Shown here: piece by piece, positions 2,143-39,250 of the stretch | How the letters are laid out: each line of letters opens with the position of its first letter | Position numbering within the stretch: the first letter of the stretch is position 1 | Assembly (NCBI GenBank): GCA_965217095.1 | Contig: OZ244235.1 | Coordinates: forward strand, 4,488,175 to 4,552,174 | Length of the DNA: 64,000 nt | Reading direction: 5' to 3' | DNA from: Candidatus Latescibacterota bacterium | Lineage (GTDB): Bacteria > Latescibacterota > UBA2968 > UBA8231 | Position numbers and translations under genes: made by a program | Notes under the pieces: model-generated | What the model was told of the DNA's origin: nothing | Seen by the model: the letters and a program-made list of their open reading frames with translations, nothing else | The model's database searches: none

Positions 2143-3544
2143 TCAGCCCTCGTTTAGCTCCATCCAGCAGCCAAGCCGCGGTTTGGCTCCGACGGGGGCA
2201 TCCACGCGCTTCAGGTAGCTGTTCTTGATGTGCTTCTCGATCCGCTTGCGGATGTCAAGGAGCGTCTTCTCCTCCGTGGTGCAGCGCCGGGGCGTCTCAG
2301 GCTTCGAGCGGACGCTGGCGACGACCTCGCCCGGCTCCTCGAGGATAGTCTCGCGGCAGAGGTCGTAGAGGTACCAGTGGGTGGTGCCGGCCTCCTCGGT
2401 GAATTCGTTCTTCTCCTTGTCGAGGGCGGGGAGCACGTAGCAGAAGAAAACACCGCGCACGCCCCTCACTGGGCGCTCGCGGCCGCTGAAGATCGCACCG
2501 GGGAAGCGAGCGAGGCGCGCCTCCAGCTCCGGGTCGGCCTGGAGCAGCGCCTGGTACTCGAGGTGCATGTCCTCCAGGGCCGTGCGCGTGCCCTCGTAGG
2601 CGTGATGGAACTCCTTCAGCGCCGTGTAATCGTCCTCCGGGGTGAGGAGCTTCTTGCCCTCGATGCCGAGGGTCTTGGAGATGAGGAGCGTCTTCTGCGT
2701 GACCTTCGTGTAGAGCGAGAGGATCTCGTTCAGCTCATCGGGCGGGAGGAAGTTCCAGAACCAGACCTTGCCGCGCGAGGCGGCCACCTCGGGATGGTCG
2801 GCGACGAGCCGCTTCTCGATTGCGGGATTCATGCGCCGGTCCACCCGGCCGATGCGCTGCATGAGGCGCACTGGGTTCCAGTGGATGTCGTAGTTGGCCA
2901 TCCGCGAGGCGTCCTGGAGGTTCAGTCCCTCGGAGAGGACATCGGTGGAGATCAGGACGCGGATTTCCTCGCGGCCCTGCTCGGCGCGTTCCAGTGCGTC
3001 TCGAACCACTCCTGGAGCTGCGCGACCTCGCGGGCGCTCTGGATCTGTACGTTCAGCTCGATGTTCTTCGTGAGACCCGGCCGCGTGAAGTTGCTGGAGC
3101 CCACCAGCGCCTGGGCACCCACGACCTCGAGCTTTGCGTGGGTGATGTAAGCCTTGGCGTGGAACTTGCCCTTGCCGTAGACACGGCATTCGATCTGCCC
3201 GGAGCGGAGCGCGTCGAGGATCCCAGGGACCCCGTGCAGAAAGGGGTTCGGCTCCTTGTCCTCCTCGATGCTTTCGTCGAGCCGGTCGAGCGCCTGCACC
3301 CGGACCGCTCCGAGAATGGCCTTCCGAGTCCGGTGGGTAGTCTCCGCGCCCATCAGGATCCGGACCTTGTCGAGCCCCTGCCATTTGCCGTCGAGGGTGA
3401 GCAGAGCGCCGATCTCGAAGTATCCGGTCGCGATGTCGAACGCCTTCGCGATGCTGGACCCTCCTCCAAGTACCGGAGCCTGGTCCAGCCGGAGACACTG
3501 TTGTCGACGATGAAGAGCCCGTGGCCCTTGGAGTCAACGGTCAT
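2143..3544 (-). pseudogene. PLD-family (HKD) nuclease domain fused to an SF2 helicase C-terminal domain (motifs V/VI only). Pieces lie in three frames. The RecA1/Walker domain is absent, so this is a remnant of a nuclease-helicase restriction/defence gene.
   Basis: Frame 2952..3353 contains KFHAKAYITH…LVGSSNFT (HKD motif). Frame 2143..~2950 contains VLISTDVLSEGLNLQ and YDIHWNPVRLMQRIGRVDR (helicase motifs V/VI). The N-terminal piece 3353..3544 is in a third frame. Start and stop overlap the neighbouring genes. Confidence 0.5.
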
Positions 3545-5111: not shown

Positions 5112-5669
5112 ATGTATGTTACGGCGCAGAGGCGTAAGTCTGTTAGGGACGAGGAGTTCCGCGCGTTTTTGCGGGGGGCTGGGTATTCCGATGTACAGAT
5201 TGACGCCGTTGGTCCCAGAGTGACCGAGCGCATAAAGCAGCTTGCCAAAGCCGAGTACGACGCGGGAGAACTGTCCACAACCATATCAGTTCCAGCTCAG
5301 CCGGTAGAAGCCAGACCACCCGCGCCGCCAGTTAAGCCCGAAACTGTTGAGCCTAAAGCTGTTGTGGATGTTGGCAAGGCCGACGTGAAAGTCCAGGGCT
5401 ACGAGGACACCTCCCTCCCCGACAACTATTTCGATCTGGCCATATCGAACGTGCCGTTCGGAGACTGCACCGTGCACGATCCGGCCTACCCGTCTTTGCG
5501 GCCGATCCACAATTACTTCTTCGAGAAAAGCCTCGATAAGGTCCGCTCCGGCGGCGTGGTCGCCTTCATAACCAGCCACTTCACCCTTGACAGCAAGGGC
5601 GCGGAGTTCCGCAAGATGTTAGCCCAAAAGGCCGACCTCCTGGGCTCTCTTTGCCGAACTTTTGCGTGA
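5112..5669 (+). pseudogene. Fragment of a PglX/Eco57I-family N6-adenine MTase carrying motif IV and the post-motif-IV region. Motifs X and I are missing. It ends a few hundred bp before the IS256 left end.
   Basis: YFDLAISNVPFGD (N-V-P-F variant of NPPY/F) followed by IHNYFFEKSLDKVRSGGVVAFITSHFTL…GAEFRKML, the typical PglX/type IIG pattern. A low-complexity Pro/Val-rich stretch sits upstream. Confidence 0.35.
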
Positions 5670-6589
5670 CCACCCTCTTGAAAGGCTCCTCCTCGACCTC
5701 TACGCCGGCCCCTTTTTTGGGTAATAACATAGTTGACTCAGTAAGCGAGCGCCTTTATGATGCTCCGCGATGACATGGGTCATCCAGCCCTCCATTCCCC
5801 ATATGAAACTTGAAAAACGCTTTTCAAAGGTGCCATAAGATGTTATTAGACAATATAATAACGATCGTTTCTGGCCGATGAATATGGGTCATCCAGAGGG
5901 TGAAAGCATGAGAATGGGAGTTATTGTCAAAAGTTGTGGATCTGGAGGGACAGGGCCACCAAGGCGATCGACGGCATAAAGGGAGAGAGCGTATCCTCAG
6001 GGTGACCACAAACACACCCGTACCCCGTAGACGCGGGGAGGAGGATACGCTCGTGGAAGAATCTACGATCATCATGGACCATGGCGCGATAGCGCGAGGG
6101 CAGTGCGAGTCGGCGTTGGAGACGATCCTGCGTGAAGGCGGTCGTCGCTTGCTGCAGGAGGCTCTGGAGCTGGAGGTTGAGCAATACATCGAGCGCTTTC
6201 AGCAGTTGAAGCGTGAGAGCGGCCAGGGCCTGGTGGTACGCAACGGCTACCACCAGGAGCGCGAGCTGGTAACCGGCGCTGGGAAGGTCCCGGTGCGCCA
6301 ACCGCGCGTACACGACCGCAGGCCAACGGAGCGCTTCACCAGTGCCATCCTACCACCGTATCTACGGCGCACGCCCAGCATCGACGCCTTGATTCCGGCG
6401 CTCTGCCTGAAGGGTGTTTTCGACCTCCGCCTTCCCGGAAGCGCTGCAGGCGATCCTGGTGACGGTGTGGTCGGTTTATCGGCGAACAACGTCGTGCGAC
6501 TCAAGCAAGTCTGGGAGCAGGAGTTCCAGGCCTGGTCGAAGCGCGACCTGCACGGCAAGCGCTACGTCTACCTGTGGGCGGACGGAATC

Positions 6590-8499
6590 GTGCGCCACGA
6601 GGCGCCAGAGAACCGGGTGGGATGCAAGGACCCACCAACGGGCTGTCGCAGCAGCCTCGACAACGACAGAGTGGAGTGGCACCTTCAGACACTCCACGTC
6701 TGGCAAGCAAGACGGAATGGTGTAACCCGAAGTGAACCAATGATGGAACCCCCTTTAGCGGCCCGCCAACCCAAACCTGGTGGATAAGGGTTGGTACGCA
6801 ACGCACGTGGTCGGATATATGACCCGACTGCGACTCTGGGGAGGTGTGATACCCACCGAAGCAGAGGCCTTGGAGAATGCCTGCGGCGTACCCAAGGCGA
6901 AGTTGCGGGGGAAAAGCTGGGCACCTCCCCCGTCAAACGGTTCATGGTGAACGTGGGAACCGAGCCGAGTCCGACCGTTATCGGAGCAGCGCGCTGTCCG
7001 CTGTGGGGTTTGGCAAGGGGCGGAGCCTCTGTAGTAGTCCGCGAGCGGGAAAGCCGCTTACATGGCGAAGGGAGGCAGCAAGTTGCGCAGTGGGGTACTG
7101 GAAAAACAGGAGGACGCCGGTGAATGCCAGCGCTTCGTGGCCCGAGGCAGAACAAGCCCGTAATCGAGTACTGGAAATCCAGACCAAACTGCACCGTTGG
7201 GCTGTAGAGGATCGAAGCAAGTGCTTCGACGACCTGTTCAACCTGGTGTGTGACCCGGCGTTTTTGAGTGTAGCCTGGCGTCGGGTGCGCAGCAACAAGG
7301 GTGCTCGTTCGGCCGGAGTGGACGGACAAACGGCCTACTCTGTGGAGACGGAACGCGGCGAGGAGACCTTTCTCGCCGAGGTGCAGGTTGATCTGAAGAC
7401 CCGCAGTTTCCGGCCTCTGCCCGTACGCGAGCGGTTGATTCCGAAGCCTGGCACAACGAAGAAGCGTCGGCTCGGCATCCCAACCGCTCGGGACCGAGTG
7501 GTCCAAGCAGCACTCAAGCTGGTGCTCGAACCGATCTTCGAGGCGGACTTCAAGCCGTGCTCCTACGGCTTCCGCCCGAATCGGCGGGCTCAGGACGCCA
7601 TCGCCGAGATTCATCAATTCTGCTCCCGCTCTTATGAGTGGGTGGTGGAGGGCGATATCCGTGCTTGTTTCGATGAGATTGATCACGCAGCCCTCTTGGG
7701 CCGCGTGCGTCGACGTATCGGTGATAAGCATGTTCTGAGGCTTGTAAAAGCGTTCTGCAAGGCCGGTGTCCTCACGGAACAATCGGTGTTGCAAGAAAGC
7801 ACTTCGGGCACTCCGCAAGGCGGTATTCTCTCACCGCTGGTGGCGGGCACCGAAGCTGCAGCGTATGACCTGCGCGACCAAACGGGGGTGACTCTCACCC
7901 CCATGGGTCTGCACCTGTCGGAGACGAAGACCGCCATCATGCACATTAGCCGTGGCTTCGATTTCCTGGGCTTTCGCATTCAGAAGCGACGGAAACCGGG
8001 CACGGTTGGCGCACGCATCTATACGTGGCCAAGAAAGGAATCTCTGGCCCGGTTGAAGAGCACGGTGCGCGCAGTCACGAGAACGGGTCGGCAGAGGCCG
8101 TTGAAGAGCCTTCTGGGCCAACTACTTTCACAGTACGGGGTGTCGAAGGCCACTTTCAACTACGTGCGGGGCTTCACTTGGCGCCGCGTAGTGCATTGGC
8201 TGCGCCGCAAGCACCCGCGCTTTAATTGGAGGAAGCTGAAACGCCGCTACCTGCCAGGATGGTGGCCCACCGAGGACGGGATTGCTCTTTACAACGTCGG
8301 CGAAGTAGCAGTGACTCGTTACCGCTATCGATCGGCGCGGATCCCTTCTCCCTGGCCTGCGACAACCGGATGAGACTCTGCGGTCACACGGCACCTTGTG
8401 GAGAGCCGGATGCGTGGTAACGCGCACGTCCGGTTCGGAGGGCGGGCCGGAGAAACCCACATCACGCGTGTGGCGCAGGGCGCTCCGGTCCGACCCTAC
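6590..8499 (+). mobile_element. Group II intron, copy 1 (1910 bp). Inserted in the IS256 transposase ORF between the codons for WADGI and YFNV.
   Basis: 5' GTGCG at 6590. Domain V GAGCCGGATGCGTGGTAACGCGCACGTCCGGTTC at ~8405-8440. 3' end …CGACCCTAC at 8499. Splicing in silico restores a canonical IS256 transposase junction (WADGI-YFNVRLQ). It encodes a reverse transcriptase/maturase. Confidence 0.8.
7120..8373 (+). CDS. Group II intron-encoded reverse transcriptase/maturase (IEP), copy 1. It reads through, but a 29-nt deletion relative to copy 2 removes the domain-X LNPVLRGWANYF motif, so it is probably non-functional as a maturase.
   Basis: RBS AGGAGGA then GTG at 7120. RLGIPTARDRVVQAALKLVLEPIFEADFKPCSYGFRP, SGTPQGGILSPL and YSVETERGE RT motifs. 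Copy 2 has LLRQLNPVLRGWANYFHSTG where copy 1 has LLGQLLSQYG. Confidence 0.65.
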   Translation: MNASASWPEAEQARNRVLEIQTKLHRWAVEDRSKCFDDLFNLVCDPAFLSVAWRRVRSNKGARSAGVDGQTAYSVETERGEETFLAEVQVDLKTRSFRPLPVRERLIPKPGTTKKRRLGIPTARDRVVQAALKLVLEPIFEADFKPCSYGFRPNRRAQDAIAEIHQFCSRSYEWVVEGDIRACFDEIDHAALLGRVRRRIGDKHVLRLVKAFCKAGVLTEQSVLQESTSGTPQGGILSPLVAGTEAAAYDLRDQTGVTLTPMGLHLSETKTAIMHISRGFDFLGFRIQKRRKPGTVGARIYTWPRKESLARLKSTVRAVTRTGRQRPLKSLLGQLLSQYGVSKATFNYVRGFTWRRVVHWLRRKHPRFNWRKLKRRYLPGWWPTEDGIALYNVGEVAVTRYRYRSARIPSPWPATTG

Positions 8500-8769
8500 T
8501 ACTTCAATGTGCGCCTGCAGAAAGATCGCCCTTGCGTGCTGGTCGTGGTCGGCGCCACCGAGGACGGCCACAAGGAGCTGTTGGCAATCCAGGACGGCGA
8601 GCGAGAAAGCCATCTCAGCTGGCTGCACCTGCTGCAGGACCTGAAGGCTCGAGGCCTGAAAGAGCACTCCTTCCTGGCCGGCGCCGACGGCGCGTCAGGT
8701 TTCTGGAAGGCTCTGGAGGAGGCGTTGCCTGGTGCCCGCGCCCAGCAGTGTTGGGTGCATAAGACGGCC

Positions 8770-9902
8770 TGGGGATATCCATTTAACCGGAGTGCGTCGC
8801 GACCCCCATCAGTGTTCGGCCGCCGACCGCCACGGCCGGTTTGCCCCTGGGCGTTCCAGGCTCGTGGGATGCCCTCGCCGTTTGGGCGGCTCGGGGGGCG
8901 GCTTCCTCGGCCGTCGGCTGGCAATGAGATCCTGGAAACGCATCGGCTCGTGGGCCACGGCCAGCTCGAGCACGCGATAAAACACCATGCCGCGGCTGCG
9001 GGAGCGGCGGCGATTGAAGCGGAACACGAACTCGTTGAGGTAGTGGCTCATGTGGGTACTGTCGGCGGCCCCTTGATGCGTTCCCAGCAGCCACCGCTTG
9101 GCCAGTGAGACAACGCGGTGCACGGCGGGCAACAGCTTGTTGGGATCATCGCCCCGAGCGCGGGCCGCGCCCTGGCTGCGCCGATCGTGCTCGTAGCCGA
9201 GCTGAGCCAGTCCCTGATAAGCGGGCCACCCGTCGGTGATGATCGTCGAGCCCGGCTCGACGTGATCCATCACGAACGCGTGCAAGGTCTCGGCAGAGGC
9301 ATCGGCCAGTGGCGACATGCGGCACCGCCCCAATCCTCTCGGCTCATGAACCTCAACTGCGATACCGGTCAGCACCTTCTTGCCCCTAAGCGCGGCCACC
9401 GGCCAGCCCAGGCTCGGCGCCGCCGATGTAGGTCTCGTCCACCTGTACCGTCCCGCTCAACAGATCCCGACCGGGACGTACCAACACCGACCGCAGGCGG
9501 TGCGGCATGGCCCAGGCAGTCTGGTAGGAGCTGATCTCCAGTACTCGCTTCAAGCTCAACGCCGAGATCCCGTCTTTACCGGTGGCGAACAGCCAGCAGG
9601 CGGTGTACCATATCGTCAAGGGTGTCCGCGTCCGATCGAAGATCGTACCGGCCGTCACCGAACTGCGTGTCGAACACGCCGGACACATGAAGCGCCCATC
9701 GCCCAAGCGCCAACCGCCTTCGTGGCCGCAACTCGGACAGACGAAGCCGTCGGGCCACCGCAGCCATTCGAGGTAGTCCAGGCAGTCCGCATCGGTTCGA
9801 AACCAGGCTTGAAACTCGCCAACCGAGCCCGGGTAGTGCTTGCCAGCGCGAGGATACGCCATGCACTGAACATATGGTAACTCCGGTTAAATGGATACCC
9901 CC
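8770..9902 (-). mobile_element. IS1595-family insertion sequence (~1.13 kb) inserted into the IS256 copy-A transposase gene. 9-bp target-site duplication AAGACGGCC (8761-8769 and 9903-9911). Terminal inverted repeats TGGGGATATCCATTTAACCGGAG and CTCCGGTTAAATGGATACCCCC.
   Basis: Inverted repeats and direct repeat read from the sequence. The transposase is in two frames (9386..9862 and 8809..9399): N-terminal zinc ribbon CPSCGHEGGWRLGDGRFMCPAC…VQVDETYIGG, then C-terminal IITDGWPAYQGL…YLNEFVFRFNRR. One frameshift near 9390. Confidence 0.7.
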
Positions 9903-10447
9903 AAGACGGCCAATGTCCTCGACAAGCTGTCCCAGCGGGTGCGCCTTGATGCCAAGAGTCTGTTGCACGAGATGTACCTGGCGCCCGCCCGAGAGGATGC
10001 CCTGGCGGCCTACGACCGCTTCCTGGGCCGCTGCCAGGACAAATATCCCCAGGCCTGCGAGTGTCTGCGCCAGGACCGCGACGAGATGTTTGCCTTCTAC
10101 GATTTCCCGGCCGCCCATTGGGTGCACCTGCGAACGACCAACCCGATCGAATCGACCTTCGCCACGGTCCGCCATCGCACGCGCCAGACCAAAGCCTGTG
10201 GCTCACGCGTCACGGCTTTGACCATGGTCTTCAAACTGGCAACCCAGGCCGAAAGGCACTGGCGTCGTCTCAACAGCTATCAACGCATCACCCATCTCGT
10301 CGATGGCGACACCTTCACCGACGGTGAACTGCAACTCAAAAAAGCCGCATGGAAATCAGCCACGGTCGCCCGGATACGCTCTCTTCCGCGGCCCCGTCAC
10401 GCCATGGACAAACGACCTTCATCCACAACATTTGACAATATCTCTGA

Positions 10448-10893
10448 GAATGGGTTTTGGGGGTGGAATAAAGCTAGAATTTCATGGTGCAAAGGTGACC
10501 TCTGACAGTGGTCTTTTAGCGTATCGTGAACGTGATGATGCGCGGGGATTATTCGATGCCGTGTCGACGGCTTTATCGGACCCACGTACTGGCCGTAACA
10601 TCCAACATGCGATGGCTACCTTATTACGCCGATCCATCTATAGCCGTCTTGCGGGGTATGAAGATGTCAATGACGCCGAGCGTCTCTCGGTTGATCCTGT
10701 CATGAGAGCGATCACCGGGAAAAGGGCGCCCAACAAACAGGCCGCCAGCGTCAACACGATGGGGCGTTTTGAAACGGAGATACTGACTCGGCAAGAGCAT
10801 CTCAGAAACTTGTCAGATATCAATGGCAAGTGGGTTCAAAAAGCGAGGGGGAAAAACGAATTCCTTGCCGAGATCAAAGGCATATTGCCCTGA
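10448..10893 (+). pseudogene. IS1380/IS4-like DDE transposase, N-terminal ~148 aa only. It starts inside the IS256 right inverted repeat.
   Basis: IKLEFHGAKVTSDSGLLAYRE…NIQHAMATLLRRSIYSRLAGYEDVNDAERLSVDP, characteristic of IS1380-family transposase N-termini. Truncated; full length is ~450 aa. Confidence 0.4.
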
Positions 10894-11287
10894 CAGTACT
10901 TGGAGCGCTGTCCAAATTTCATAGCTGCGTGTGGCGATATCCATGGTTACGGGTTCGATGCGGACGAAGCCCTGGGTGACTTGCCAGGGGGGGTGGAAAG
11001 TAATAAAAAGTTGGTTTCCGCCAAACCGTCCGCCGGCCAGAACACTTGTAAGCAATTGTCATGGAGTCGCCCAAAAAAGACAGTCAGACGGCAATCCGTC
11101 TGACAGCATGCGAGCCGCCCGGGCAGAATCCACAGAATGTGGGATCAAGAATTGGCGGTACCGGCCCGGAAAAACCCAAGATCCAGTGAGTTTGCAGGCC
11201 ATTCGAAAGGAAAATAATGCGAATTGAGGCTAATATCTGGTTGGCATCGGCATCCACCCGGAAGACACAGCATGGCCAGTCACGCCG

Positions 11288-11482
11288 TCATGTCCGGCGA
11301 GAGCCTGCCCCTGGTCGGCAAAGCTGCTCGGGCACCGACGCCATCGCACGACGGCAGGCTACGCCCACCTCCTCGCTCTCATGGTCGAATACCATCCGAA
11401 CCGCCCGCTCGCGTACCTCGGGGGAATACCTGTGTCGTTGTGCCATGACTCCAATCCTCTCAAGAAAAGGAGTCTCCGGCAA
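11288..11482 (-). pseudogene. IS3-family (IS6110/IS51-like) orfA N-terminal remnant.
   Basis: QRHRYSPEVRERAVRMVFDHESEE resembles IS3-family OrfA (…RRYPPELRERAVRMV…). Only ~60 aa, then degenerate. Confidence 0.3.
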
Positions 11483-11552
11483 GTCCGGGGAGATTCACTC
11501 CTTCATGTGAAGCGCTCGACACGAATGACTGCTGTTTTGTGGCTTGAAGAGA

Positions 11553-12530
11553 CTATGGCTGAGAGGACCATGGGATTTCCACGGTGTAGTGCCAGATACG
11601 GGAGACTCCGAGGCTAGTCTGTCGATCGTGCGTGGCGCAGATCGGGTAGAGCATGCTGACAGGAAGACCGTAGCACTCCGTCAGATAGAAGATCGTAAAT
11701 CCCAGAGCCTGAGCTTTCGTCGCCAGAGGACAGATATACATATTAGAGAACCTATGCTCCTTGGCTATTTCACTTAGCACGCCGGCTGTGATGAACGGGT
11801 CATAGGCCGGGGCAAAGAAGTTGCCAGGTCTATTCCCCACATCGACTCCTACGATCTCAGAAGCGCGGTACGCCCTCAGCACGTTCTCTTGGTACATCTC
11901 CGCTCTGAGTGATGGAAGACCAAACAGCATCAACTTGCGGGAGTTTTTTTTGTAGTCTGCGACCTGTGCTATGAGTTCGTCATCGTACCCTGCCCCGATG
12001 ATGAGCAGGTCGTTCGACGTATCAGCAGTGTGAAGGCCCTCGAACCCCACGACTTGGCGGACTTCCTTGACGACTGCATCTGAGAAGCGAGTCTCTTCCT
12101 TTCTGGCGTAGTAGGCCGGCTCAGCGAAAAGGACGTCAAATTTCTCCAGGCCGAGTTCCAGCAACCATCTTAATAGGAACATCATATACGGTTTGACAAA
12201 ACCGGTTATGTCTATACATACCCTATTGCCACTGACGTCATCGATGCCTGCCGAAGCGAAGCACTGCTTGATGAACTCTGCCTCGTCGGAACAAGGAATA
12301 GCATGGCATTGTCCACTTGGATGCTCGTGGTCGGCGTATTTATAGTCCGGGAGCATCAGCCAATGCTTGGAATCAGCGCGCACGTTGTCATATACCGTTT
12401 GGACTCTTTCACTAGAGTTGTATGCAGAAATGAACAAGTCCCAGTCCAGTTGCCACTGGGACTGCGGATCAAGATTACCCTTGTAGTAGATCGAGTAGTC
12501 AGCCATCGAAGAGATCTTTCTGCTCATCAC
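11553..12530 (-). CDS. Hypothetical protein (325 aa). Fourth and last gene of the lower-GC MTase–NTPase operon. Rossmann-like stretch NDLLIIGAGYDDELIAQVADY.
   Basis: Coherent, non-low-complexity ORF. Its start overlaps the stop of the upstream NTPase gene. GC is lower than the surrounding sequence. Confidence 0.55.
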   Translation of the reverse strand: MMSRKISSMADYSIYYKGNLDPQSQWQLDWDLFISAYNSSERVQTVYDNVRADSKHWLMLPDYKYADHEHPSGQCHAIPCSDEAEFIKQCFASAGIDDVSGNRVCIDITGFVKPYMMFLLRWLLELGLEKFDVLFAEPAYYARKEETRFSDAVVKEVRQVVGFEGLHTADTSNDLLIIGAGYDDELIAQVADYKKNSRKLMLFGLPSLRAEMYQENVLRAYRASEIVGVDVGNRPGNFFAPAYDPFITAGVLSEIAKEHRFSNMYICPLATKAQALGFTIFYLTECYGLPVSMLYPICATHDRQTSLGVSRIWHYTVEIPWSSQP

Positions 12531-14538
12531 CCGGCGTTGTCGTGGGCCTCTTCTCGATGCGCCGTCCGAACTCAGGAGCCGTCATCCTATCCACCCGCGA
12601 GGCCAAAACTTCGGGAAAACGATCACTGTGTGTTTCGTCAAATATGGCGTCTGCTTCGGAGGCTTTGAGAGCGATTGCCCCCCTCCGCGAAATTGGGAGA
12701 TCCCATCGCGGTGCGAGCATGGGAACGAGCTGAAGTTTCGCATCCACCCGGGGAGTGTTCCTGTCCTTCTGTCCTCCTGACACATCCACGAGGAGCGACC
12801 AGCTTATCGCGAGGTGGATGTTAGAGCGGCTGCGCTCTGAGATGCTTGCCAAATCGACGGAGAAGGCACACAGAGAGCACTCCGATGGCTTGTCTGAGAA
12901 CCGAATTGCTCTGAACAGTGTAGCTAGACGCTCCACACCCTTTAGAACCTCAGGAGATCTAGCACCAGGAACTCTGGCGTCGCGGTAAAACCACTCCGAT
13001 GCCTCACGCACCCCCTCAGTCTGTGTGGCATGGCCCATCTGTGTCGATGAGTAAGGATCCTCACCGTTGAAGATCGCCCAGCGATGTGTGTGCTTAAGAA
13101 TCGTGAGTAATGCACGCGGTAGCCCACAGGACATGTCAACGAAGGTCTTGAACCCAAGATACCTTTGGGGTAGCTGGAGTTCGCGCAGCAATTGGGCGAT
13201 TAGGTCCCTTTTGAAGTGGGCCAGGGCATGGTGATGTCGGCCCTTCGAGCCTGTGTCGTCGCGGTAGGCGTGTGCGCTAATAGCTATTTCACGGGCGGAT
13301 TCGCGCAGGTCCCTGTTGGCACTCCAATCCTTGTATAGCAAAAAAGTGCTAGTCTTCTCCAATAGGGGAGCCCCCGCTATGCGCAGTGCATCAATCACCA
13401 TGTCAGCGTCTCTAGCCTCAGTGAGACCCGGAGCTATCTGGAGCTCAATTCCTCTTAATAGCTTATCCCTCAGGGCCTCGAAGTACGGCTGCCTATCGGG
13501 CAAGCGTGTTGTACCGGTACCTTGTGCATCCCACCCACTTCCGGGCAAATAGAAGAGTCCCATGGCATCGACAGGATCTTCTTGCATTGGAGTGGGCAAA
13601 GCGACTCCAGACTTGAGAAGCCGTCTTGTGCAGAGCATTGCGGCAAACTTAGCGTAATTGGGCCTTTTTCTGACTCGATCGTCCAGCCGCATCTCCTCGA
13701 ACTCAGATCCCTCTCTGTTGACCTCTTCCGCACTCAATGTTTCGTACGTCCTGATTCCGTATCTCCGGGCACCTACTCTGAATGAACAGGGGGCCTCCCG
13801 CTCTCGGATTAGCGTGTTGACGTATCTCTGATGGTTAGCGGTTAGGTTCTCTAACTCGTCAATCAGGTATAAGAAAAGCACAGACTGGAGTCCGGGTATC
13901 TCCTCCGCCAGTATCTGCGGCACGCCATACACGAGTCGTCCAGGGCTAGAGAGGATCCTTGAGTTTATCTTGCCGGTGATAGGGGCGTTATTGACGGCCA
14001 AGTCGAGCTCCCGCTGCAGCGACTGAAATGCGGAGAGCAGCTCGGACAGGGCCTTGGGCTCCTGACCAAGCGGAGCATCGAAGCACGTGCCAATTATGCG
14101 GGAGACGATCCGCTCCTCCTGCAAATCAGTCTCAGTTTCTACTAGGGCCTCAGCTACCGCAGCAACGACGAGCTGAGAGAGCCACAGGTCGCTGTAATAA
14201 GCGAACAAGCTTGCCCATGCCTCATCTGAAAGCCCACGTCCAGAGAATCTGCTCGCATTCAAGCCCGTACACCGTAGATAGATTCCGATATATCCCTCTT
14301 TCGCGATGCCCTGTAACGCTGAGTCATGGCACCGCAGCCTCTGTAGGGGGAAAGAGAAGTATCGCATCAGGTGGGTCTTACCGCTTCCCTTGCCCCCGAG
14401 CAGCAGCATCGGCATCGGGGAGGTAGGCTTGAGGAACTCCTCGAATCCGCCTCCTGGCATGTCTACCCAGTAGTCATGGATCTGCTCGTCCGAGAAATCG
14501 ACTGCTTGAGTGACATTGAATGGATTGTCAACGCGCAT
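12499..14538 (-). CDS. P-loop NTPase (679 aa) with widely spaced Walker A and Walker B motifs, reminiscent of ABC/AAA_15-21-type or ORC-like defence ATPases.
   Basis: Walker A LLLGGKGSGKTHLMRY near aa 48. Walker B LFLYLIDELENL near aa 240. Translationally coupled to both neighbouring genes. Confidence 0.6.
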   Translation of the reverse strand: MRVDNPFNVTQAVDFSDEQIHDYWVDMPGGGFEEFLKPTSPMPMLLLGGKGSGKTHLMRYFSFPLQRLRCHDSALQGIAKEGYIGIYLRCTGLNASRFSGRGLSDEAWASLFAYYSDLWLSQLVVAAVAEALVETETDLQEERIVSRIIGTCFDAPLGQEPKALSELLSAFQSLQRELDLAVNNAPITGKINSRILSSPGRLVYGVPQILAEEIPGLQSVLFLYLIDELENLTANHQRYVNTLIREREAPCSFRVGARRYGIRTYETLSAEEVNREGSEFEEMRLDDRVRKRPNYAKFAAMLCTRRLLKSGVALPTPMQEDPVDAMGLFYLPGSGWDAQGTGTTRLPDRQPYFEALRDKLLRGIELQIAPGLTEARDADMVIDALRIAGAPLLEKTSTFLLYKDWSANRDLRESAREIAISAHAYRDDTGSKGRHHHALAHFKRDLIAQLLRELQLPQRYLGFKTFVDMSCGLPRALLTILKHTHRWAIFNGEDPYSSTQMGHATQTEGVREASEWFYRDARVPGARSPEVLKGVERLATLFRAIRFSDKPSECSLCAFSVDLASISERSRSNIHLAISWSLLVDVSGGQKDRNTPRVDAKLQLVPMLAPRWDLPISRRGAIALKASEADAIFDETHSDRFPEVLASRVDRMTAPEFGRRIEKRPTTTPGDEQKDLFDG

Positions 14539-15494
14539 CAGGGAGTGAACTCCATCTTTGGGTACCTCCGGAAGATAGGTACCCAGGGTTTATCTTCTTC
14601 ATCGTACCAGAAGATCGGAAGCGTGTTATCTGGCGTGTTGTGATGGAAGCCGAGGAGTAGCTGTCCGTTTTCAAATCCTAGGGCGTCGTCATCGGTGAAA
14701 AGGTCACTGCCGTACTTTCGACACATAGCCTCGGTTCGCTGACGGTCGACCATGGAAGAGGCTGCAGGGAAGTACCGAGACACTTGGCCAAAGCATTTGT
14801 AGGAAGAATCCAGTACATGAATAGCCCTAACCTCATCAAACAGGCTGTTGGCGATGATATTGTCACGCCCCTCCTCGGTTGCGAACAGGAGGTGGTAATC
14901 GACCGTGGCATCTGGGTTGGCGTGCTTAAGATCGGCCAATACTTCCTCGGAGTATGTGACTGCCTGTGTTCCACTTCCACAGAAGTCATCAATGAACACA
15001 TAATGCGAAACATCAGGGAATCGGACTTCTGCGACGCCCTGAGAACCGTACCGCCGGAACACCTCGTGCGTATGCACGAATAGCTCCTTTGGTAGTCGGT
15101 TCTCCTGTCGATAGTAGTAAAGGAGATGGCACCCGCTCTCCGACGGATTTCCCATTCCTAGGAATCTCGTTCTCTGCAGCTCATACTCATACTTCCCATC
15201 CAGGAAGGAGACGTCGACTGTGTTTGCGTTCTGACGTCGAGCGCTCTGCACGATCGGATACTTGTAAAGATCTCTGTGCATCGCTTGCAGTAACTCGCGC
15301 ACCTCGTGGCTACCAAAGTACATGAACTGGCTGAGCAAGAAGAGTGCGTGAAAGCGTTCACCCGGTTCGTTGGGGAGATCAGCAGAGAAATTGCTTAGCC
15401 ATTCAGTGATGCTGTTCTGAGTTGCTCTGTCTTCCCAAACGGTCTCGTTCAGAATCTTCAGCTTCCGCCTCAGGTCCTCGACATATGAGTCCAC
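14538..15494 (-). CDS. Hypothetical protein (318 aa) with a phosphoribosyltransferase-like / MTase-motif-I-like signature (YVFIDDFCGSGTQA).
   Basis: hhhhDD-x-CGSGT resembles the PRTase PRPP-binding loop. It also mirrors the DPFCGSGT motif I of the upstream MTase. Its start overlaps the NTPase gene. Confidence 0.5.
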   Translation of the reverse strand: MDSYVEDLRRKLKILNETVWEDRATQNSITEWLSNFSADLPNEPGERFHALFLLSQFMYFGSHEVRELLQAMHRDLYKYPIVQSARRQNANTVDVSFLDGKYEYELQRTRFLGMGNPSESGCHLLYYYRQENRLPKELFVHTHEVFRRYGSQGVAEVRFPDVSHYVFIDDFCGSGTQAVTYSEEVLADLKHANPDATVDYHLLFATEEGRDNIIANSLFDEVRAIHVLDSSYKCFGQVSRYFPAASSMVDRQRTEAMCRKYGSDLFTDDDALGFENGQLLLGFHHNTPDNTLPIFWYDEEDKPWVPIFRRYPKMEFTP

Positions 15495-15506
15495 GCTCTA
15501 TCGCCC

Positions 15507-16874
15507 TTACCCTTTCTGGTATACGGCTGTGAGCTCAACTGGAATCAGTGCGGCGGTGTGATTGCGCTTCGTCATGAGTTGGCGAGATCGGATCTTGTTC
15601 TCAAAAACACATGCGAGGTCAAAGCCCAGCGATTCCGCTATCTCACGGATGTACTCTGTGGCGCGGAAGCGGCGACCACAGACCAGGTTATCGCCCAGTG
15701 TCAGGACCAGATGGCCACCGGGACGCAGAACTCTCCACGCCTCCTGCAGGCTTGTTCGCATCTCGCGCAGAAAACTTCCGGCAATGTGGGCTCGCAGGGG
15801 GTACTCGGTATACACCTGAGCCAGCAGGTCATCGGCTGATACGACACCTGTTGGCAGGAAGCTCTCCAATTCTGATGTAGGGTAGTGCTCACAGCCGATA
15901 GTCTTCGACTCAAGTTTTCGCAAGCCACTGGAAGCGGCGAGGTCCAGCCATCCGAGGCTGAGGCTAGTAGACCTCACATATTTCTGAGCCCCCGCGTAGG
16001 GCGGCGAGGTGAGGATAAGGTCCACGGCTTCATCCGAGAGACGACCCGTTCCATTGGTTGAGAAAGGAGCTGGGAAGTGCAATTGTCGAGCATCCACAGA
16101 GATGTGACACGGCGGCGGGTTTGGAAGGACTCGGTAGAGTGCCGCCATTCGCTTGAGGTTGACCTCTACACACCGCCGGAACACTCCAAAGACATTGACG
16201 CGACGCAATTGGCGAATGTGACGATCAGTCCTTTCGCGCAAAGGATGCGCGGGAGGGTACTGTCCTTCGCGAAGCCTAACGGGCACCGAGAGCCGTGGAT
16301 CCGCAAGGCTGGTCTTTCGAGCGCAGGACGAAAATGCAACCTGAAAGAAGCGAATGTATGCATCACTCCGGAGCGACATGATACCCTCACGGATCCTGCA
16401 GAGCTGGCGAATCACATGCGGATGGTACCAGTAGTCGATGTTGACCACATCGGGTAGAGGCTGTGTGGCACGGTCGGGGATGTTCCGTTGCAGACAATTA
16501 AATGATCTCCTTAACGCCGAGGGAGACAGTGGCTGTGTCTTCGCGGCTGCCATTAGCCGGGCGAACGGGTTCGTGTCGGAGCCTAGAGCAGGTCTTCCGG
16601 AGAGTAAGGCTTCGAGGAGCACGGTCCCGGAACCACAGAAAGGGTCCAGCACGACACCCCCAGGCGGGCAAACCTCTGGGCACTTGAGAAAGAAGTGCGG
16701 GACATGTACGAGTAGTTTGGCCGGATAGGGGTGTAGGAGATGCGTATACCTGTCAGGCGACCGAAGACCGTCAACGGCTGACCGGAAATCAAAGGGCACA
16801 GGACTGCCCTCTGTCCTGTACTGCTCGACAGCGTTACGGAGTAGCTGATTTGTGCTGGGGCAAGGATCAGCCAT
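15507..16874 (-). CDS. DNA methyltransferase (N6A or N4C), alpha-like motif order X–I–TRD–IV. First gene of the four-gene operon.
   Basis: HPYPAKLLVHVPHFF (motif X-like). GVVLDPFCGSGTVLLEALLSG…SDTNP (motif I). VDLILTSPPYAGAQKY (motif IV, SPPY). Confidence 0.65.
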   Translation of the reverse strand: MADPCPSTNQLLRNAVEQYRTEGSPVPFDFRSAVDGLRSPDRYTHLLHPYPAKLLVHVPHFFLKCPEVCPPGGVVLDPFCGSGTVLLEALLSGRPALGSDTNPFARLMAAAKTQPLSPSALRRSFNCLQRNIPDRATQPLPDVVNIDYWYHPHVIRQLCRIREGIMSLRSDAYIRFFQVAFSSCARKTSLADPRLSVPVRLREGQYPPAHPLRERTDRHIRQLRRVNVFGVFRRCVEVNLKRMAALYRVLPNPPPCHISVDARQLHFPAPFSTNGTGRLSDEAVDLILTSPPYAGAQKYVRSTSLSLGWLDLAASSGLRKLESKTIGCEHYPTSELESFLPTGVVSADDLLAQVYTEYPLRAHIAGSFLREMRTSLQEAWRVLRPGGHLVLTLGDNLVCGRRFRATEYIREIAESLGFDLACVFENKIRSRQLMTKRNHTAALIPVELTAVYQKG

Positions 16875-16948: not shown

Positions 16949-17167
16949 TTAGGCATCCGCTGCAATGTACGCCAAAACGGACCGCCTCGCATCCGTAGCT
17001 GTGCGGATGCGGAGGGTATGTTGATGCGTGAGTCTCAGGGTTGGCCTGCTGGTTGAGTAGCCGGGGCCAGTTGCCCAGCCCCGGCCCTCACCAGAGCCGG
17101 ACTTCAGGCTCAACGCCGAGATCCCATCCTTGCCCGTGGCGAACAACCAGCAGGCCGTGAACCACAC
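16949..17167 (-). pseudogene. Fragment of an IS1595-family transposase gene. Same family as the 8770..9902 element.
   Basis: WFTACWLFATGKDGISALSLK matches WYTACWLFATGKDGISALSLKRV in the 9386..9862 ORF. The local DNA is similar to 9540-9610. Confidence 0.45.
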
Positions 17168-17194
17168 GGTCAGCGGCCCCCTGTGTCAGGATAG

Positions 17195-25244: not shown

Positions 25245-26126
25245 ATGAACTTGATAACCGTAACAGAAAGATTTCCGACGCAGGAATCCTGCATCGCCCA
25301 TTTGGAGCTGGTTCGCTTCGGCGATGAGCCCTTTTGCCCCTTGTGCGGCACGGTCGGGGAGTGCGCCCGCAAGCGTGAAGGGTCGAAGATCGGGCGCTGG
25401 AACTGTCACGCCTGTAAATCCAGCTTCAACGTCTTATCCAAGACGATGTTTCAGGGAACACATCTTCCCTTGCAGAAGTGGTTCTGCGCCATCGCCCTGA
25501 TCGTGAACGCCAAGAAAAGCCTGTCCAGTTGCCAGCTTGCACGTGACTTGAACCTGAATCAGGGGTCCGCCTGGTACATGCAGCAACGCATCCGGGCCGA
25601 GATGGCTACCAAGCAGGGAAGGATCAGGTTAAGTGGAATCATCGAAGCCGACGAGACCTATGTCGGCGGACGCCCCAGGAAGCGCAATAAGCACGATGAC
25701 GACAAGCCCAACCCCAGAGGACGAGGAACACGCAAGACCGCTGTTATCGGCGCTGTGGAGCGTTCTGGGAAGGTTGTGGCCGAAGTCGCCGACGATCTCT
25801 CGGGCAAGGGCGTGCTCGCCTTTATCAAGCGCGCCATCGATCCTGACACCTCGACGCTGGTCACGGACGAATACGGGGCCTATAACGTGGTGCGGCGGAT
25901 CATGGATCACTGCGTGATTCAGCATTCCGAGCGCTATGTCGATGGCAGTATTCATACCAATACGATAGAAGGCGTCTGGTCCCTGCTCAAGCGCGCCTGG
26001 TATGGATCACATCATCACTACACGAGACAATACACGCCGCTTTACGTGGCCGAAGCGTGCTACAAGTACAATCACCGCGGCACCGACAATGGCTTCGAGG
26101 CGTTCCTGCACGGATGCTTCAAGTAG
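25245..26126 (+). CDS. IS1595-family transposase (293 aa), intact.
   Basis: Zinc ribbon CPLCG…CHACK. IEADETYVGG. LVTDEYGAYNVV. HTNTIEGVWSLLKRAWYGSHHHY. Confidence 0.75.
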   Translation: MNLITVTERFPTQESCIAHLELVRFGDEPFCPLCGTVGECARKREGSKIGRWNCHACKSSFNVLSKTMFQGTHLPLQKWFCAIALIVNAKKSLSSCQLARDLNLNQGSAWYMQQRIRAEMATKQGRIRLSGIIEADETYVGGRPRKRNKHDDDKPNPRGRGTRKTAVIGAVERSGKVVAEVADDLSGKGVLAFIKRAIDPDTSTLVTDEYGAYNVVRRIMDHCVIQHSERYVDGSIHTNTIEGVWSLLKRAWYGSHHHYTRQYTPLYVAEACYKYNHRGTDNGFEAFLHGCFK

Positions 26127-28298: not shown

Positions 28299-29168
28299 GA
28301 CAGGGTAAAGATGGTTTGTTATGTGGGAAAGTCAAGCCTTAAAGCGTTAATTGCGAAAGTTTTTGGACAGCAAGCCCCTGAAGTCAGGGGCGAACAATCA
28401 CTATCGGCCGGCACGATGGTTCACAGAACATATCGACGACGTATGGCCAAAATTTGATATAGATACCAAGGAGCGCTTTGAAAAAGTATTTGTGAAGGTT
28501 AACTCGCTACTTTAGTACGGAATGAACCGGCAAGCGAGCTACCATTAATAGGTGTGGAAAAAGAGAAAGGGCGACCCTAACCTTCCTTTATAGAAGTCCA
28601 TCAACAACCGCCCGGTTGGCGCCGGGCATGGAAGGAGAGAGTCGCCATGAGAGAATCTACACTGGAATCCGCAGACTTGTCTATGCCGACGTGGGATACG
28701 CTGGAAGGCTGGGCTCGCTCGTCGATCCAATCGCTGTTGCAGCAGGTGCTGGAGGAGGAAGTGACGCAGCTACTGGGCCGTACGCGCTACGAGCGCCGGA
28801 CTTCAGTGGACGACAACTCGGGCTCGCGCAACGGACATGGCAAGCCTCGACGGCTGGCGTTGATGTCGGGCACCATCGAGGTGAAACGGCCTCGGGTTCG
28901 TGGACTGGAGGAGCGCTTTGAGAGCCGAATCCTGCCGCTGTTTATGCGCCGTACGAAGTCGGTGACCCAGTTGCTGCCCGAGCTCTACCTGCACGGACTG
29001 TCTCAGGGGGACTTCGAGCTGGCGCTGCGCGGCCTGCTGGGAGCGGGAGCGCCGCTGTCGCCGTCCTCTATCGCGCGTTTGCGGAATAAGTGGATCGTCG
29101 AATACCACGCCTGGCGCACGCGACGGCTGGATGACCGCGAGTTGGTGTACGCCTGGGCGGACGGGATC

Positions 29169-31107: not shown

Positions 31108-31791
31108 TATGTCAAAGCTGGACTCGAGAAGGACAAGGCGGCGTTGCTAGTTGTCCTGGGCGCCATGAGCGACGGACGCAAACAGGTGCTGGCGGTGAGA
31201 CCGGGACATCGTGAATCGACCGAGTCGTGGTTGAGCGTCTTGCGGGATCTGCGGGATCGTGGTCTGCGCGCACCGGTGTTGATGATGGCCGATGGCGCCT
31301 TGCCCATCTGGAGTGCCGTCGACCAAGTCTGGCCGGAGACGGCGCAACAGCGGTGTTGGACTCACAAGATCATGAACGTCCTCGACGACTTGCCCAAGCG
31401 TGGACAAGGAAAGCGAGGGCGCTGCTGACCCAGATCCCCGCAGCTGACACGCGCGCACAGGCCGAGGCCCGGCGCGACAAATTTGCCGCCCGCTACAAAG
31501 ACCGATATCCCAAAGCGGTCGCCACCCTCGAACGCGACTGGGAGCGCATGGTCACCTTCTATGACTTTCCCCAGCAGCACTGGAGGCATCTGCGCACGAC
31601 GAATCCCGTAGAGAGTCCCTTTGCGTCGGTACGCCTGCGGACCAACGCAGGAAAACGCTACAAGCGGGTCCAGAGCGCCACGGCATTGATCTGGCGCCTG
31701 CGGATGGTCGCCGAGAAACACTTTCGAAAACTTAATGCCTTCGAGTTGCTACCCGTCGTCTACGCCGGACAGAAGCACCAAGACGGAAAGC

Positions 31792-32493
31792 CTATACAGG
31801 AAGAGAAGATGTCAAACAAGCGAAGGATGAAGAGGGCCGCCTGATCTCATTTACACACCTATTGACGCAACCTCCGGCAAGCTGTACAGTGACGGTAATT
31901 ACCTGACAGTCGCCCCTGCTGGGCGCTATGTCATGCAGCCTTTTTCCCCGATGTATTCGGTGCTTCTCAGGCCGAGATTCCAATCCTTTCTTGAAGGCTG
32001 CCAGTGGTGTCGTTCCGTTCATATTCCTGCCCTGATGCGGGCGTTTCTCGTTGTATTTGACCAGGAAAGCATCCAGATCTTTTTGGATGTCGTCAACGGT
32101 CTCATGCCACGTCTTTCGACCGACGACGCGGAAATGCTCATCCAGGATGGTTCGGTGCAGGCGCTCGACGAAGCCGTTGGTCTGGGGTGATTTGATCTTT
32201 GTTTTACGGTGGTCGATATCCTTGAGCTGCAGAAAGAGCTCGTAGGGGTGCTGATCGTGACGACCACAGAATTCGCGGCCGTTGTCGGTGATCACGGGAT
32301 GCACTTGGGCCTGGTACTTTTCGAAGAAGGACAGGACATCGTTGTTGAGCACGTGGATGGCGGTCACCGGCAGCTTGGTGGTGTAGAGCTTGGTCCCGGC
32401 TACGGTTTCTGGAAAGCGTTGGTCCCACTCATCGAGCAGGGCTTTACTCTGACCATTCAGATGACGAGGGGTTATTAGCACACACAAAAGCAA
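31792..32493 (-). pseudogene. IS481-family (rve integrase-core) transposase, C-terminal fragment. Its 3' end runs into the IS256 copy-B right end.
   Basis: VITDNGREFCGRHDQHPYELFL…KIKSPQTNGFVERLHRTILDEHF. Confidence 0.5.
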
Positions 32494-38790: not shown

Positions 38791-38989
38791 GTGGCAGCCC
38801 TCCCGGATGGCCCGACGATACACCCAAAGGTGGCTGTACCTCCACGGATGTATTGGATAGCCTGATGAGTGTGTTTTCGACCGGGCGGGCCTAATACTCC
38901 AGTCGGACGACCGTCAGGCACCAGGCCCGCTGAGGCCTCGGGGGCACCTCGTAAATCCGTTGCCGCCGCTCAAGGAAGAAACCGGTGTC

Positions 38990-39250
38990 CGAGGCCATTC
39001 GTCAGCTGTTGCTGCGAGTGGCTGATGAGAAGCAGCTCCCATTCACTTGGCGCCGAGTCGGTCTGCCGCAGCGGATCAAGCGCTGGTCGCTGATGAGTCT
39101 GCAGCACCGGCTCGTGAAGACCGGTGGACAGCTCGTGAAGCATGCGCGCTACTAACTGGTTACTCTTGGCAGAGGGGCATCTCCACCGGCGGCTGTTCAG
39201 CGACATGTTGCGCAGGCTTTGGGCGCTGCCCCTGCCGGCAGGATAGAGGG
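38990..39250 (+). pseudogene. IS1380/IS4-like transposase C-terminal fragment.
   Basis: SLMSLQHRLVKTGGQLVKHARY(*)LLLAEGHLHRRLFSDMLRRLWALPLP resembles the conserved C-terminal helix (L.LRLLKIGA.V.R.ARR…) of IS1380-type transposases. Confidence 0.3.

Follow-up and report, generated by a model that had tools for sequence, protein, structure and literature searches.

Four nested mobile elements in decay, with a degenerate group II intron in an IS256-family transposase gene of a Candidatus Latescibacterota bacterium

The 64,000-nucleotide stretch of the Candidatus Latescibacterota bacterium assembly GCA_965217095.1 analysed here (contig OZ244235.1, positions 4,488,175 to 4,552,174; the window) contains four selfish elements lying one within another, namely, an IS1380-family element interrupted by an IS256-family element which itself carries a group II intron and an IS1595-family element. 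We consider it very probable that this structure is a stack recording successive insertions, all of them inactive by now: the intron lacks the YADD motif and 55 nt of its ribozyme, frameshifts are present, a stop codon has been lost and the IS1380 element is truncated. Because all four elements are damaged, the pile-up is, overall, ordinary debris left by mobile elements, apart from a curious detail at the edge of the intron. One IS is often found inserted into another, and nothing categorical sets this pile of four elements with well-defined boundaries apart from the nested IS clusters of bacterial genomes. As a nested IS pile, it is of little importance, representing a clean, fully delimited case of mutual insertion and decay; its main use is for annotation, with four element boundaries and three target duplications defined and the neighbouring fragments re-identified. 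The features, in window coordinates, are as follows.

5379 to 5651, plus strand: N6-adenine methylase domain fragment with the motif NVPFG, in the ORF 5112-5669; outside the nest
5789 to 5917, plus strand: left part of the IS1380 element (left end CCCTCCATTCCCC..., 5' leader and first 3 transposase codons), by similarity to the related copies L025, L026 and L028
5909 to 5917: left 9-bp target duplication TGAGAATGG produced by the IS256 element, direct repeat
5918 to 5941: left inverted repeat of the IS256 element, GAGTTATTGTCAAAAGTTGTGGAT, 24 nt, 92% complementary to 10421-10444
5918 to 10444, plus strand: IS256-family element A, 1475 bp without its two insertions; ends shared with six uninterrupted copies
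6053 to 6589, plus strand: exon 1 of the IS256-A transposase, GTG start at 6053 as in its relatives, ending ...WADGI (aligned with P0001-P0006)
6414 to 6458, plus strand: two frameshifts that compensate each other, TTT>TTTT (+T at 6417) and GGG>GG (-G at ~6458)
6580 to 6587, plus strand: four clustered substitutions (exon positions -10, -5, -4 and -3), GCC GAC GCC GTC > GCG GAC GGA ATC, changing AV to GI
6590 to 8499, plus strand: degenerate group II intron, 1910 nt (RF00029); in-silico splicing restores the transposase
7120 to 8373, plus strand: intron-encoded protein ORF, 417 aa (RVT_1 profile positions 1-129 of 205; GIIM)
8401 to 8499, plus strand: domains V and VI of the intron, extending to its 3' splice site (RF00029, 57.3 bits; gathering score 40)
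8500 to 8769, plus strand: middle part of the IS256-A transposase (YFNV...WVHKT), frame restored after in-silico excision
8762 to 8769: left target duplication AGACGGCC of the IS1595 element; right copy at 9904-9911; with the preceding A, a 9-bp identical string
8770 to 9903, minus strand: IS1595-family element, 1134 bp, 98.6% identical to L018 end to end
8809 to 9862, minus strand: IS1595 transposase in two ORFs (9386-9862 and 8809-9399), split by an extra T at 9389 (GCT>GCTT)
9912 to 10352, plus strand: C-terminal part of the IS256-A transposase (ANVL...KKAA), by protein alignment with relatives
10421 to 10444: right inverted repeat of the IS256 element, pairing with 5918-5941
10445 to 10453: right 9-bp target duplication TGAGAATGG produced by the IS256 element, direct repeat
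10454 to 10855, plus strand: IS1380 transposase codons 4-137 of ~447 (PF13701, 8.3e-28); homology ends at 10855

All features of the first-pass annotation were located at, or a few bases from, the positions it had assigned to them. The three-level nesting it described is real, but one level deeper than proposed, given that the IS256 element sits inside an IS1380 transposase gene. That IS256-A is interrupted twice, as previously noted, follows from excision in silico: removal of the intron, the IS1595 element and one copy of its duplication leaves a 1475-bp element with a single open frame, which has the same length as six uninterrupted public copies and is 97.6-98.2% identical to them end to end, both excision joints being gap-free in the alignment. 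Members of the IS256 family are recognised by a Mutator-type DDE transposase scoring above the curated cut-off, terminal repeats, an 8-9 bp duplication and a size of ~1.3-1.5 kb. The repaired protein scores 199 bits against PF00872 (cut-off 21; 1.3e-58) and 275.6 bits against NF033543 (cut-off 150), and the element combines a single transposase of ~415 aa with imperfect terminal repeats, the second-longest inverted pair across the region, and a 9-bp duplication; the uninterrupted copy L001 is likewise flanked by 9 bp, GTAGCGGTC. By contrast with intact members of the family, the window copy is twice interrupted, contains a compensated frameshift pair, as had also been recognised, which yields FDLRLPGSAAGDP in place of STSAFPEALQAIL, and has lost its stop codon (TAG to TGG at 10350-10352), such that the frame reads on through the right inverted repeat. 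This damage bears on the activity of the element rather than on its family assignment.

The outermost host was previously noticed as an IS1380-like transposase N-terminus abutting the structure. An IS1380-like identity is supported, but the topology needs correcting: the IS256 element is inserted within the IS1380 element, the left end of which lies upstream, at ~5789, with similarity to the three related copies beginning at 5789-5794. The transposase gene starts with ATG AGA ATG at 5908-5916 and is interrupted at ATG AGA ATG G|GT, with the 9-bp duplication on both sides; across the excised site, it is colinear with L025. The fragment is 53% identical to a Microvirga IS1380 family transposase and 73% identical to the metagenome copy L025. 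It scores 97 bits against PF13701 (cut-off 34.7), covering only profile positions 5-130 of 435, and 87.7 bits against NF033539, below the cut-off of 180 because only 137 of ~447 aa are left. A left end is thus present, whereas the right two-thirds of the element, its right end and, hence, the second terminal repeat and flanking short duplication were not found within the window. First, an IS1380-family element arrived in a stretch that was already decaying. A type-A IS256, using its DDE transposase, then entered codon 3-4 of the IS1380 transposase gene, duplicating 9 bp, and its own transposase gene subsequently took two further hits, from the group II intron and the IS1595 element, with no order between them implied.

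The IS1595 element went in antisense at HKT|ANVL. Its length of ~1.1 kb, insertion point and frameshifted transposase agree with the earlier description, and its ends coincide exactly with those of the independent copy L018. The 22-bp inverted repeats reported initially are present and form the top inverted pair of the region, but extend to 24 bp (8770-8793 and 9880-9903, 23 of 24 positions matching). The 9-bp string proposed as the target duplication, AAGACGGCC, does occur twice (8761-8769 and 9903-9911); given ends of the form T...A and 24-bp repeats, however, a duplication of 8 bp, AGACGGCC, is the likelier reading, with an ambiguous ninth base, and 9 bp is possible from the window copy considered by itself. 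The related copy L018 generated a 9-bp duplication, such that the length ranges from 8 to 9 bp. The transposase displays the N-terminal zinc ribbon (PF12760, 4.6e-13) and the ISXO2-like DDE domain (PF12762, 7.6e-25) of the family and scores 182 bits against NF033547 (cut-off 75); its difference from other members is the +1 frameshift. All three single-base frameshifts in the structure (6417, ~6458 and 9389) are changes in homopolymer length and could be assembly or sequencing errors, in which case the IS1595 transposase could be intact.

The same boundaries bear on whether the nest exists in any real molecule or was created by misjoining of repeated IS and intron sequences during assembly. The window is repeat-rich, with several IS families and two intron copies at 98% identity, and related short metagenome contigs (L002-L006) show the mismatched IS flanks typical of repeat-induced chimeras. 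Nevertheless, such an origin is most improbable here, since three insertions are each bounded by a matched target duplication and their removal restores the host exactly, which a false join would not yield. Moreover, 12 substitutions and an indel distinguish the two intron copies, so that they are not one collapsed repeat, whereas their two IS256 hosts share only ~15 nt around the intron, too short a tract for seeding a misjoin.

The nest had also been read as serial insertion into a defence gene, with a truncated PglX-like methylase abutting it. A fragment encoding adenine-methylase motif IV indeed lies 137-267 bp upstream, and the wider surroundings are defence-like, with SNF2/HKD remnants at 2143-3537 and a CARF6-like/ORC-CDC6/PRTase-CE/MTase cluster at 11553-16874. 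However, we found this reading unsupported, because a 137-nt gap separates the fragment from the IS1380 end and the methylase does not resume beyond the pile: tblastn with the 2090-aa relative detected no further methylase sequence anywhere in the window. Only ~93 aa of methylase homology are left, ending at 5651, which coincides with no IS end, and the immediate host of the IS256 element is the IS1380 transposase gene. The PglX (BREX) identity was rejected as well. PADLOC models, that of PglX among them, gave no match to the ORF at E <= 0.001, NCBIfam models gave none either, and the fragment has a weak Pfam match, to Eco57I (5e-4). PglX is a large gamma-class N6-adenine methylase of BREX operons, and no BREX genes were identified near the fragment. 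Its best match (54% identity) lies in a 2090-aa SNF2/methylase protein from an Acaryochloris conjugative plasmid, at aa 167-259, and its best relatives in general are the methylase domains of giant methylase/SNF2 fusion proteins, mostly from conjugative plasmids. Destruction of a PglX/BREX-type methylase gene by the pile-up is, accordingly, quite unlikely, and we retain the IS1380 transposase gene as the outermost target.

The intron splits the IS256-A transposase at WADGI|YFNV, exactly as first described. It begins with GTGCG at 6590 (5' GUGYG) and ends with CTAC (3' AY; ...CCGACCCTAC), contains domain V with its catalytic hairpin and domain VI with its bulged A, and, once excised at the predicted splice sites, leaves the host gene in frame. 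Rfam matches to domains I-IV were found neither for this intron nor for its full-length relative. The encoded protein retains motifs 0-4 of the reverse transcriptase together with part of the maturase domain, and scores 278 bits against TIGR04416, under the cut-off of 300. The intron is thus a degenerate member of the group II introns rather than a non-member, with 1910 nt versus 2141 nt in the full-length relative. In comparison with L013, deletions of 55 nt (at 6649/6650), 150 nt (~7835-7843) and 27 nt (~8114-8130) are apparent. Alignment with the 476-aa protein of the full-length relative (P0123), which contains RYADDF, and with solved group II reverse transcriptases shows that a 50-aa deletion has stripped YADD from both copies in the window. 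The deleted 55-nt segment of domain I is conserved across three intron subtypes and contains a hairpin with compensatory changes; this conservation is the one argument on which we suggest, from sequence comparison, that splicing has been lost. With a protein devoid of YADD and a ribozyme devoid of these 55 nt, the intron presumably can neither be spliced nor ride its host unaided.

The intron belongs to a clade lacking the endonuclease domain, the members of which always sit at one codon of IS256-family transposase genes, two past the first catalytic Asp (WAD-GI|Y), where the window intron went in, sense-oriented. Eight other copies of the window intron all reside in type-B IS256 at ...ELVYAWADGI|YVKAG; the 5' exons of six copies in a Latescibacterota MAG likewise end with ...ELVYAWADGI, and introns with only 60% identical protein occupy the same codon of other IS256-family genes. 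The lineage hence homes to the most conserved motif of IS256-family transposases, which explains its ability to spread among IS256 elements with mutual identities of only 45-85%. In the Latescibacterota MAG, a 3518-bp unit of IS and intron is found in at least five places with 99.9-100% identity, and the two copies with flanks read (L020 and L021) each have their own 8-bp duplication, such that the intron-bearing IS still multiplies as a single unit. A sense-oriented intron could be spliced from the transposase mRNA and thereby ride an active IS, as seen in this MAG.

A passage in PMC2504315 places bacterial group II introns preferentially in plasmids, IS elements and transposons. The closest parallel to the intron described here is RmInt1 of Sinorhizobium meliloti, the protein of which lacks an endonuclease domain and the natural homing site of which lies in the transposase gene of ISRm2011-2 (IS630 family) and close IS (PMC4496777, PMC1802570). 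RmInt1 is also capable of entering sites whose binding sequences are similar, and its genomic copies tend toward inactivation (PMC4496777, PMC1802570). The window intron resembles it in having a protein that stops after the maturase region, in residing in an IS transposase gene and in occurring as degenerate copies. By contrast, the host here belongs to the IS256 (Mutator) rather than the IS630 family, the clade targets the codon two past the first catalytic Asp across divergent IS256 subgroups, and the window copy has undergone internal deletions in the reverse-transcriptase active site and domain I instead of point mutations or a 3' truncation.

The IS256-A element appears to be a non-native host, the native home of this intron being type-B IS256. 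Type-B relatives natively encode WADGIY, whereas WADA[VILA] is present in all 35 of the closest type-A relatives (at least 65% identity) among the matches listed and in the 14 listed cluster members. The second intron copy of the window resides in a native type-B IS256, is 98% to >99% identical to the first, differing by the 12 substitutions and one indel, and has six derived characters in common with it; because these derived mutations are shared, we infer that the type-A copy came from the type-B lineage, through mobilisation in trans or through copying of DNA or cDNA. The 27-nt maturase deletion is shared with L009 and L010 and absent from the other window copy, pointing to a history with recombination or recurrent deletion rather than a simple tree.

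The curious detail concerns the 5' exon. All four substitutions of IS256-A listed above fall within the last 10 nt of the exon, and three of the four match the IS256-B exon of the window (chance probability ~6e-6), whereas -4 (A) agrees with neither parent. The intron might have carried along, or later imposed, donor-like bases on this tract. Accordingly, we tentatively put forward, as a possibility that is on the unlikely side, that an undescribed endonuclease-less clade homes to the IS256 codon two past the catalytic Asp and rides the IS, and that a crippled copy moved from a cognate to a non-cognate IS256, converting only ~8-10 nt of the 5' exon. If true, this would indicate that copying proceeded via cDNA or DNA and that exon co-conversion was asymmetric, a pattern which, to our knowledge, differs from those described for bacterial retrohoming systems to date. 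The conversion would have to be abandoned if an uninterrupted type-A IS256 of the same genome natively had GCGGACGGAATC.

Alternatively, the exon changes do not represent transfer from a donor exon, for which there are two versions that, jointly, have a real chance of being correct, if short of an even one. In the first, polishing with reads from type-B junctions produced an artefact, implying GCCGACGCCGTC as the true sequence joined to the intron; type-B copies are more numerous, the region is repetitive and a tract of at most 10 nt corresponds to aligner tolerance at a read end. Such an artefact would sit uneasily with the 3' exon, which is unchanged even though types A and B differ there too, at +3/+4, and with the base at -4. 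In the second, selection favoured better intron-exon pairing after ectopic insertion into a type-A site that was already close to type B (12 of 15 positions alike upstream and 3 of 3 downstream), and pairing with the tentative EBS1 (GAUAC) would gain base pairs from the changes at -5 and -3. Selection is argued against by a host element that is a pseudogene in other respects and by an intron <1% from its sister copy, which leaves little time for four adaptive changes; in addition, C>G at -10 merely reproduces the type-B allele of the window and makes the tentative EBS2 pairing weaker. The homing site and the rewritten exon are side observations of moderate specialist interest; the combination of a rewritten 5' exon with a crippled intron makes this locus a natural test case for the movement of defective introns by trans-mobilisation, gene conversion or template switching.

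The nested structure at 5918-10444 is real and was, for the most part, correctly described in the first-pass annotation, which had proposed an IS256 element with two insertions. The core of the nest, hereafter IS256-A, consists of the following parts.

5918-10444: IS256-family element, the ends formed by 24-nt inverted repeats, GAGTTATTGTCAAAAGTTGTGGAT and its near-complement, 92% complementary
5909-5917 and 10445-10453: 9-bp direct repeat TGAGAATGG, flanking IS256-A on both sides
6590-8499: first foreign segment, an intron, starting GTGCG and ending CTAC
8770-9903: second foreign segment, with 24-nt terminal inverted repeats matching at 23 of 24 positions

The inverted repeats and target duplications, whose alignment had been recommended as a check, do line up as listed. 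In-silico removal of 6590-8499 and 8770-9911 leaves 1475 bp with a single uninterrupted frame, and the repaired protein matches PF00872 (199 bits) and the NCBIfam IS256 model (275.6 bits; cut-off 150) and has 415-aa relatives at 93-94% identity. Six fetched contigs carrying close relatives of this protein served as the reference set. The repaired DNA aligns with all six end to end at 97.6-98.2% identity, spanning exactly 5918 to 10444, and both excision joints are free of gaps; every reference copy is 1475 bp long, and a separate 9-bp duplication flanks the one on a 985-kb contig. Within the first foreign segment, domains V/VI match Rfam RF00029 (57.3 bits vs a gathering score of 40). The nest is ordinary, and known elements acting in familiar ways account for it; what can be added beyond it is modest, and comes from an IS256-specific intron clade and an apparent conversion of the exon.

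The second foreign segment encodes a zinc-ribbon/DDE transposase on the minus strand, in two overlapping ORFs. An independent IS1595 copy with an intact 348-aa transposase (L018) corresponds to positions 9903 to 8770 with 98.6% identity and has the ends TGGGGG...CCCCCA. By the ends that L018 defines, the reported 9-bp duplication is more probably the 8-bp AGACGGCC: the extra base would be the A/T at the element's own terminus, which matches the target by chance. L018 itself is flanked by a 9-bp duplication. The frameshift noted in the inserted transposase comes down to a single extra T at 9389, and the +1/-1 pair noted in its IS256 host to a T gained in a T-run (6417) and a G lost from a G-run (~6458), relative to the six references; the pair swaps out 13 residues. 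The three shifts are all homopolymer-length changes, and may reflect either real slippage or long-read assembly error. The IS256-A stop codon is also altered (TAG to TGG, 10350-10352), and the frame continues through the right repeat. Elsewhere in the window, 16949-17172 holds a short IS1595 transposase relic, 85% identical to the nested element over 71 nt, and 25245-26126 a separate IS1595-family transposase (293 aa) that appears intact.

The outermost element is an IS1380 fragment, which IS256-A had been thought merely to abut at an IS1380-like N-terminus. The 9-bp duplication falls within the codons ATG AGA ATG G|GT TTT GGG, and joining across IS256-A opens an ORF, the first 137 residues of which match IS1380-family transposases (PF13701, 8.3e-28; an annotated Microvirga IS1380 transposase is 53% identical, a related metagenome copy 73%). 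Together with a left end at ~5789, located by comparison with three relatives, the joined ORF places IS256-A inside the fragment rather than beside it. The hierarchy, as read from these junctions, is IS1380 > IS256 > {intron, IS1595}. IS1380 homology ends at 10855, and the remaining two-thirds of the element were not found within the window. The segment at 38964-39246 was considered as the missing C-terminus and ruled out, being 41-43% identical to the IS1380 relative L025, vs 73% for the N-terminus; it is, by this comparison, a C-terminal fragment of a different IS1380/IS4-like transposase relic. No metagenome contig matched a 26-mer across the IS256 target, that is, an empty IS1380 site. A near-identity search of plasmids returned only short family-level matches. 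Just outside the IS1380 left end, 66 nt (5723-5788) weakly repeat the IS1380 leader (5834-5896), both ending in ATGGGTCATCCAG; they may be the remnant of an older IS1380 copy that the present one entered. From the IS1380 break to the next gene (10856-11552), ~700 bp are without recognized content, except for a weak match to an IS3-type OrfA helix-turn-helix on the minus strand (11288-11482; PF01527, E 0.002).

Serial insertion into a PglX-like defence gene, as initially suggested, is unsupported, because the candidate ORF (5112-5669) had no match in PADLOC and NCBIfam searches, the methylase fragment stops 137 nt before the IS1380 end, and methylase sequence does not resume downstream of the pile. 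The ORF has an NVPFG motif and a weak Eco57I-type Pfam match; in plasmids, it is related to the methylase domain of very large methylase/SNF2 proteins, most of them carried by conjugative plasmids, and 5379-5651 covers only residues 167-259 of a 2090-aa Acaryochloris protein of this kind. With SNF2/HKD remnants upstream and a CARF6-like/ORC-CDC6-like/PRTase-CE/methylase cluster downstream, the surroundings of the nest look like a decayed island. The upstream remnants (2143-3537, minus strand) are those of a decayed HKD+SNF2 gene similar to DrmD/DrmC-type defence proteins: the C-terminal domain of an SNF2 helicase and, in another frame, an HKD/PLD nuclease motif (2952-3353). The downstream cluster (11553-16874, minus strand) has four genes, CARF6-like (PADLOC PDLC01914, 3.5e-103), ORC-CDC6-like (PF24389, 1.6e-124), PRTase-CE (PF24390, 3.4e-63) and a type II-like methylase, and looks like an intact conflict/defence system adjoining IS debris.

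A second copy of the intron (copy B, 29169-31107; 98% identical to the one in IS256-A, copy A) sits at the same codon of a type-B IS256-family gene (...ELVYAWADGI|YVKAG), a type too diverged from that of IS256-A (type A) for detection by blastn. All other recovered copies likewise occupy this codon of type-B genes: seven are metagenome loci, and six belong to a Candidatus Latescibacterota MAG. That MAG carries a 3518-bp unit of IS256 plus full-length intron at five or more sites with 99.9-100% identity (L019-L024, CBDAOB01 contigs), and the two copies with flanks read, L020 and L021, have their own 8-bp duplications, GTCTATTC and GCTTTCGG. Near-identity at several sites and separate duplications indicate that the IS, intron included, is transposing actively as a unit, which requires splicing. 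The MAG and window introns are 99.5% identical, against only 80-85% for the host IS. Introns with ~60% protein identity interrupt the same codon of other IS256-family genes (WVDGI|HFNI, WADGV|HVRV, WLDAT|). By its distribution, the clade is specialized on the first-aspartate motif of IS256-family transposases, an analogue being RmInt1 in ISRm2011-2 (PMC4496777, PMC1802570); we did not find such an IS256-specific clade described in the literature searched, which is absence of evidence only.

The full-length intron, found by protein searches (L013), is 2141 nt long and encodes a 476-aa protein (P0123) including RYADDF. Measured against this form, copies A and B share two deletions: 150 nt between LVA repeats, which takes out 50 aa with YADD among them, and 55 nt between AGCAGCC repeats in domain I. 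In copy A, a further 27 nt are gone from the maturase domain. The three intron subtypes compared (L013, L105/L107 and L110), the proteins of which are only ~60% identical, all conserve the 55-nt segment, and a hairpin at its 5' edge, half inside the deleted part, shows compensatory changes, for which reasons the loss probably cripples the ribozyme of the window copies. Rfam at permissive thresholds recovered only the domain V/VI match in the full-length intron. Complementarity scans and alignment of the three subtypes yielded EBS1 and EBS2 candidates, GAUAC (near nt 320) and GUUGGU (near nt 256), which were dropped for want of convincing covariation with the exons. The full-length comparison also led us to reject the idea that a 29-nt gap in copy A restores a frame broken in copy B: the gap resolves to the in-frame 27-nt deletion in A, common to other contigs, and a private 2-nt insertion in B that affects the intron protein. 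The deletion is common to L009/L010 and absent from copy B. Within copy A, 6985-7542 holds eight substitutions in 560 nt, all transitions, six private and two common only to L016/L017, with no private change in the rest of the copy. Taken together, the clustered substitutions and the deletion pattern suggest that intron copies have recombined with one another.

Copy A is the only clade member found in a type-A IS256. The six uninterrupted type-A DNA copies all read TGGGCCGACGCCGTC|TAC, and WADA[VILA] occurs in 35/35 of the closest listed type-A relatives (>=65% identity) and 14/14 listed cluster members. The window exon reads TGGGCGGACGGAATC|TAC, with four changes, at -10, -5, -4 and -3. At three of these positions the base is that of the type-B exon in the same window, TGGGCGGACGGGATC. 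The remaining 1465 bp hold 19 private differences, a density at which four changes in these ten sites would arise with a probability of ~6e-6. Exon 2 beside copy A is unaltered. An artefact of polishing, or selection for pairing between exon and intron, is a possible cause of the exon change; our reading is that donor exon sequence was carried across, or that a gene-conversion tract later extended out of the intron. Six derived characters common to introns A and B indicate an origin of copy A in this genome's type-B lineage.

The type-B element itself (28536-31874) has an 8-bp duplication, CGGCAAGC, and a transposase frameshifted near 31400; an rve_3 integrase-core fragment (31792-32493, minus strand) overlaps its right end. 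Farther along lie a 137-nt direct repeat family in three copies (34481-34988) and two tRNA genes on the minus strand (40486-40574 and 40608-40691, within 40486-40691).
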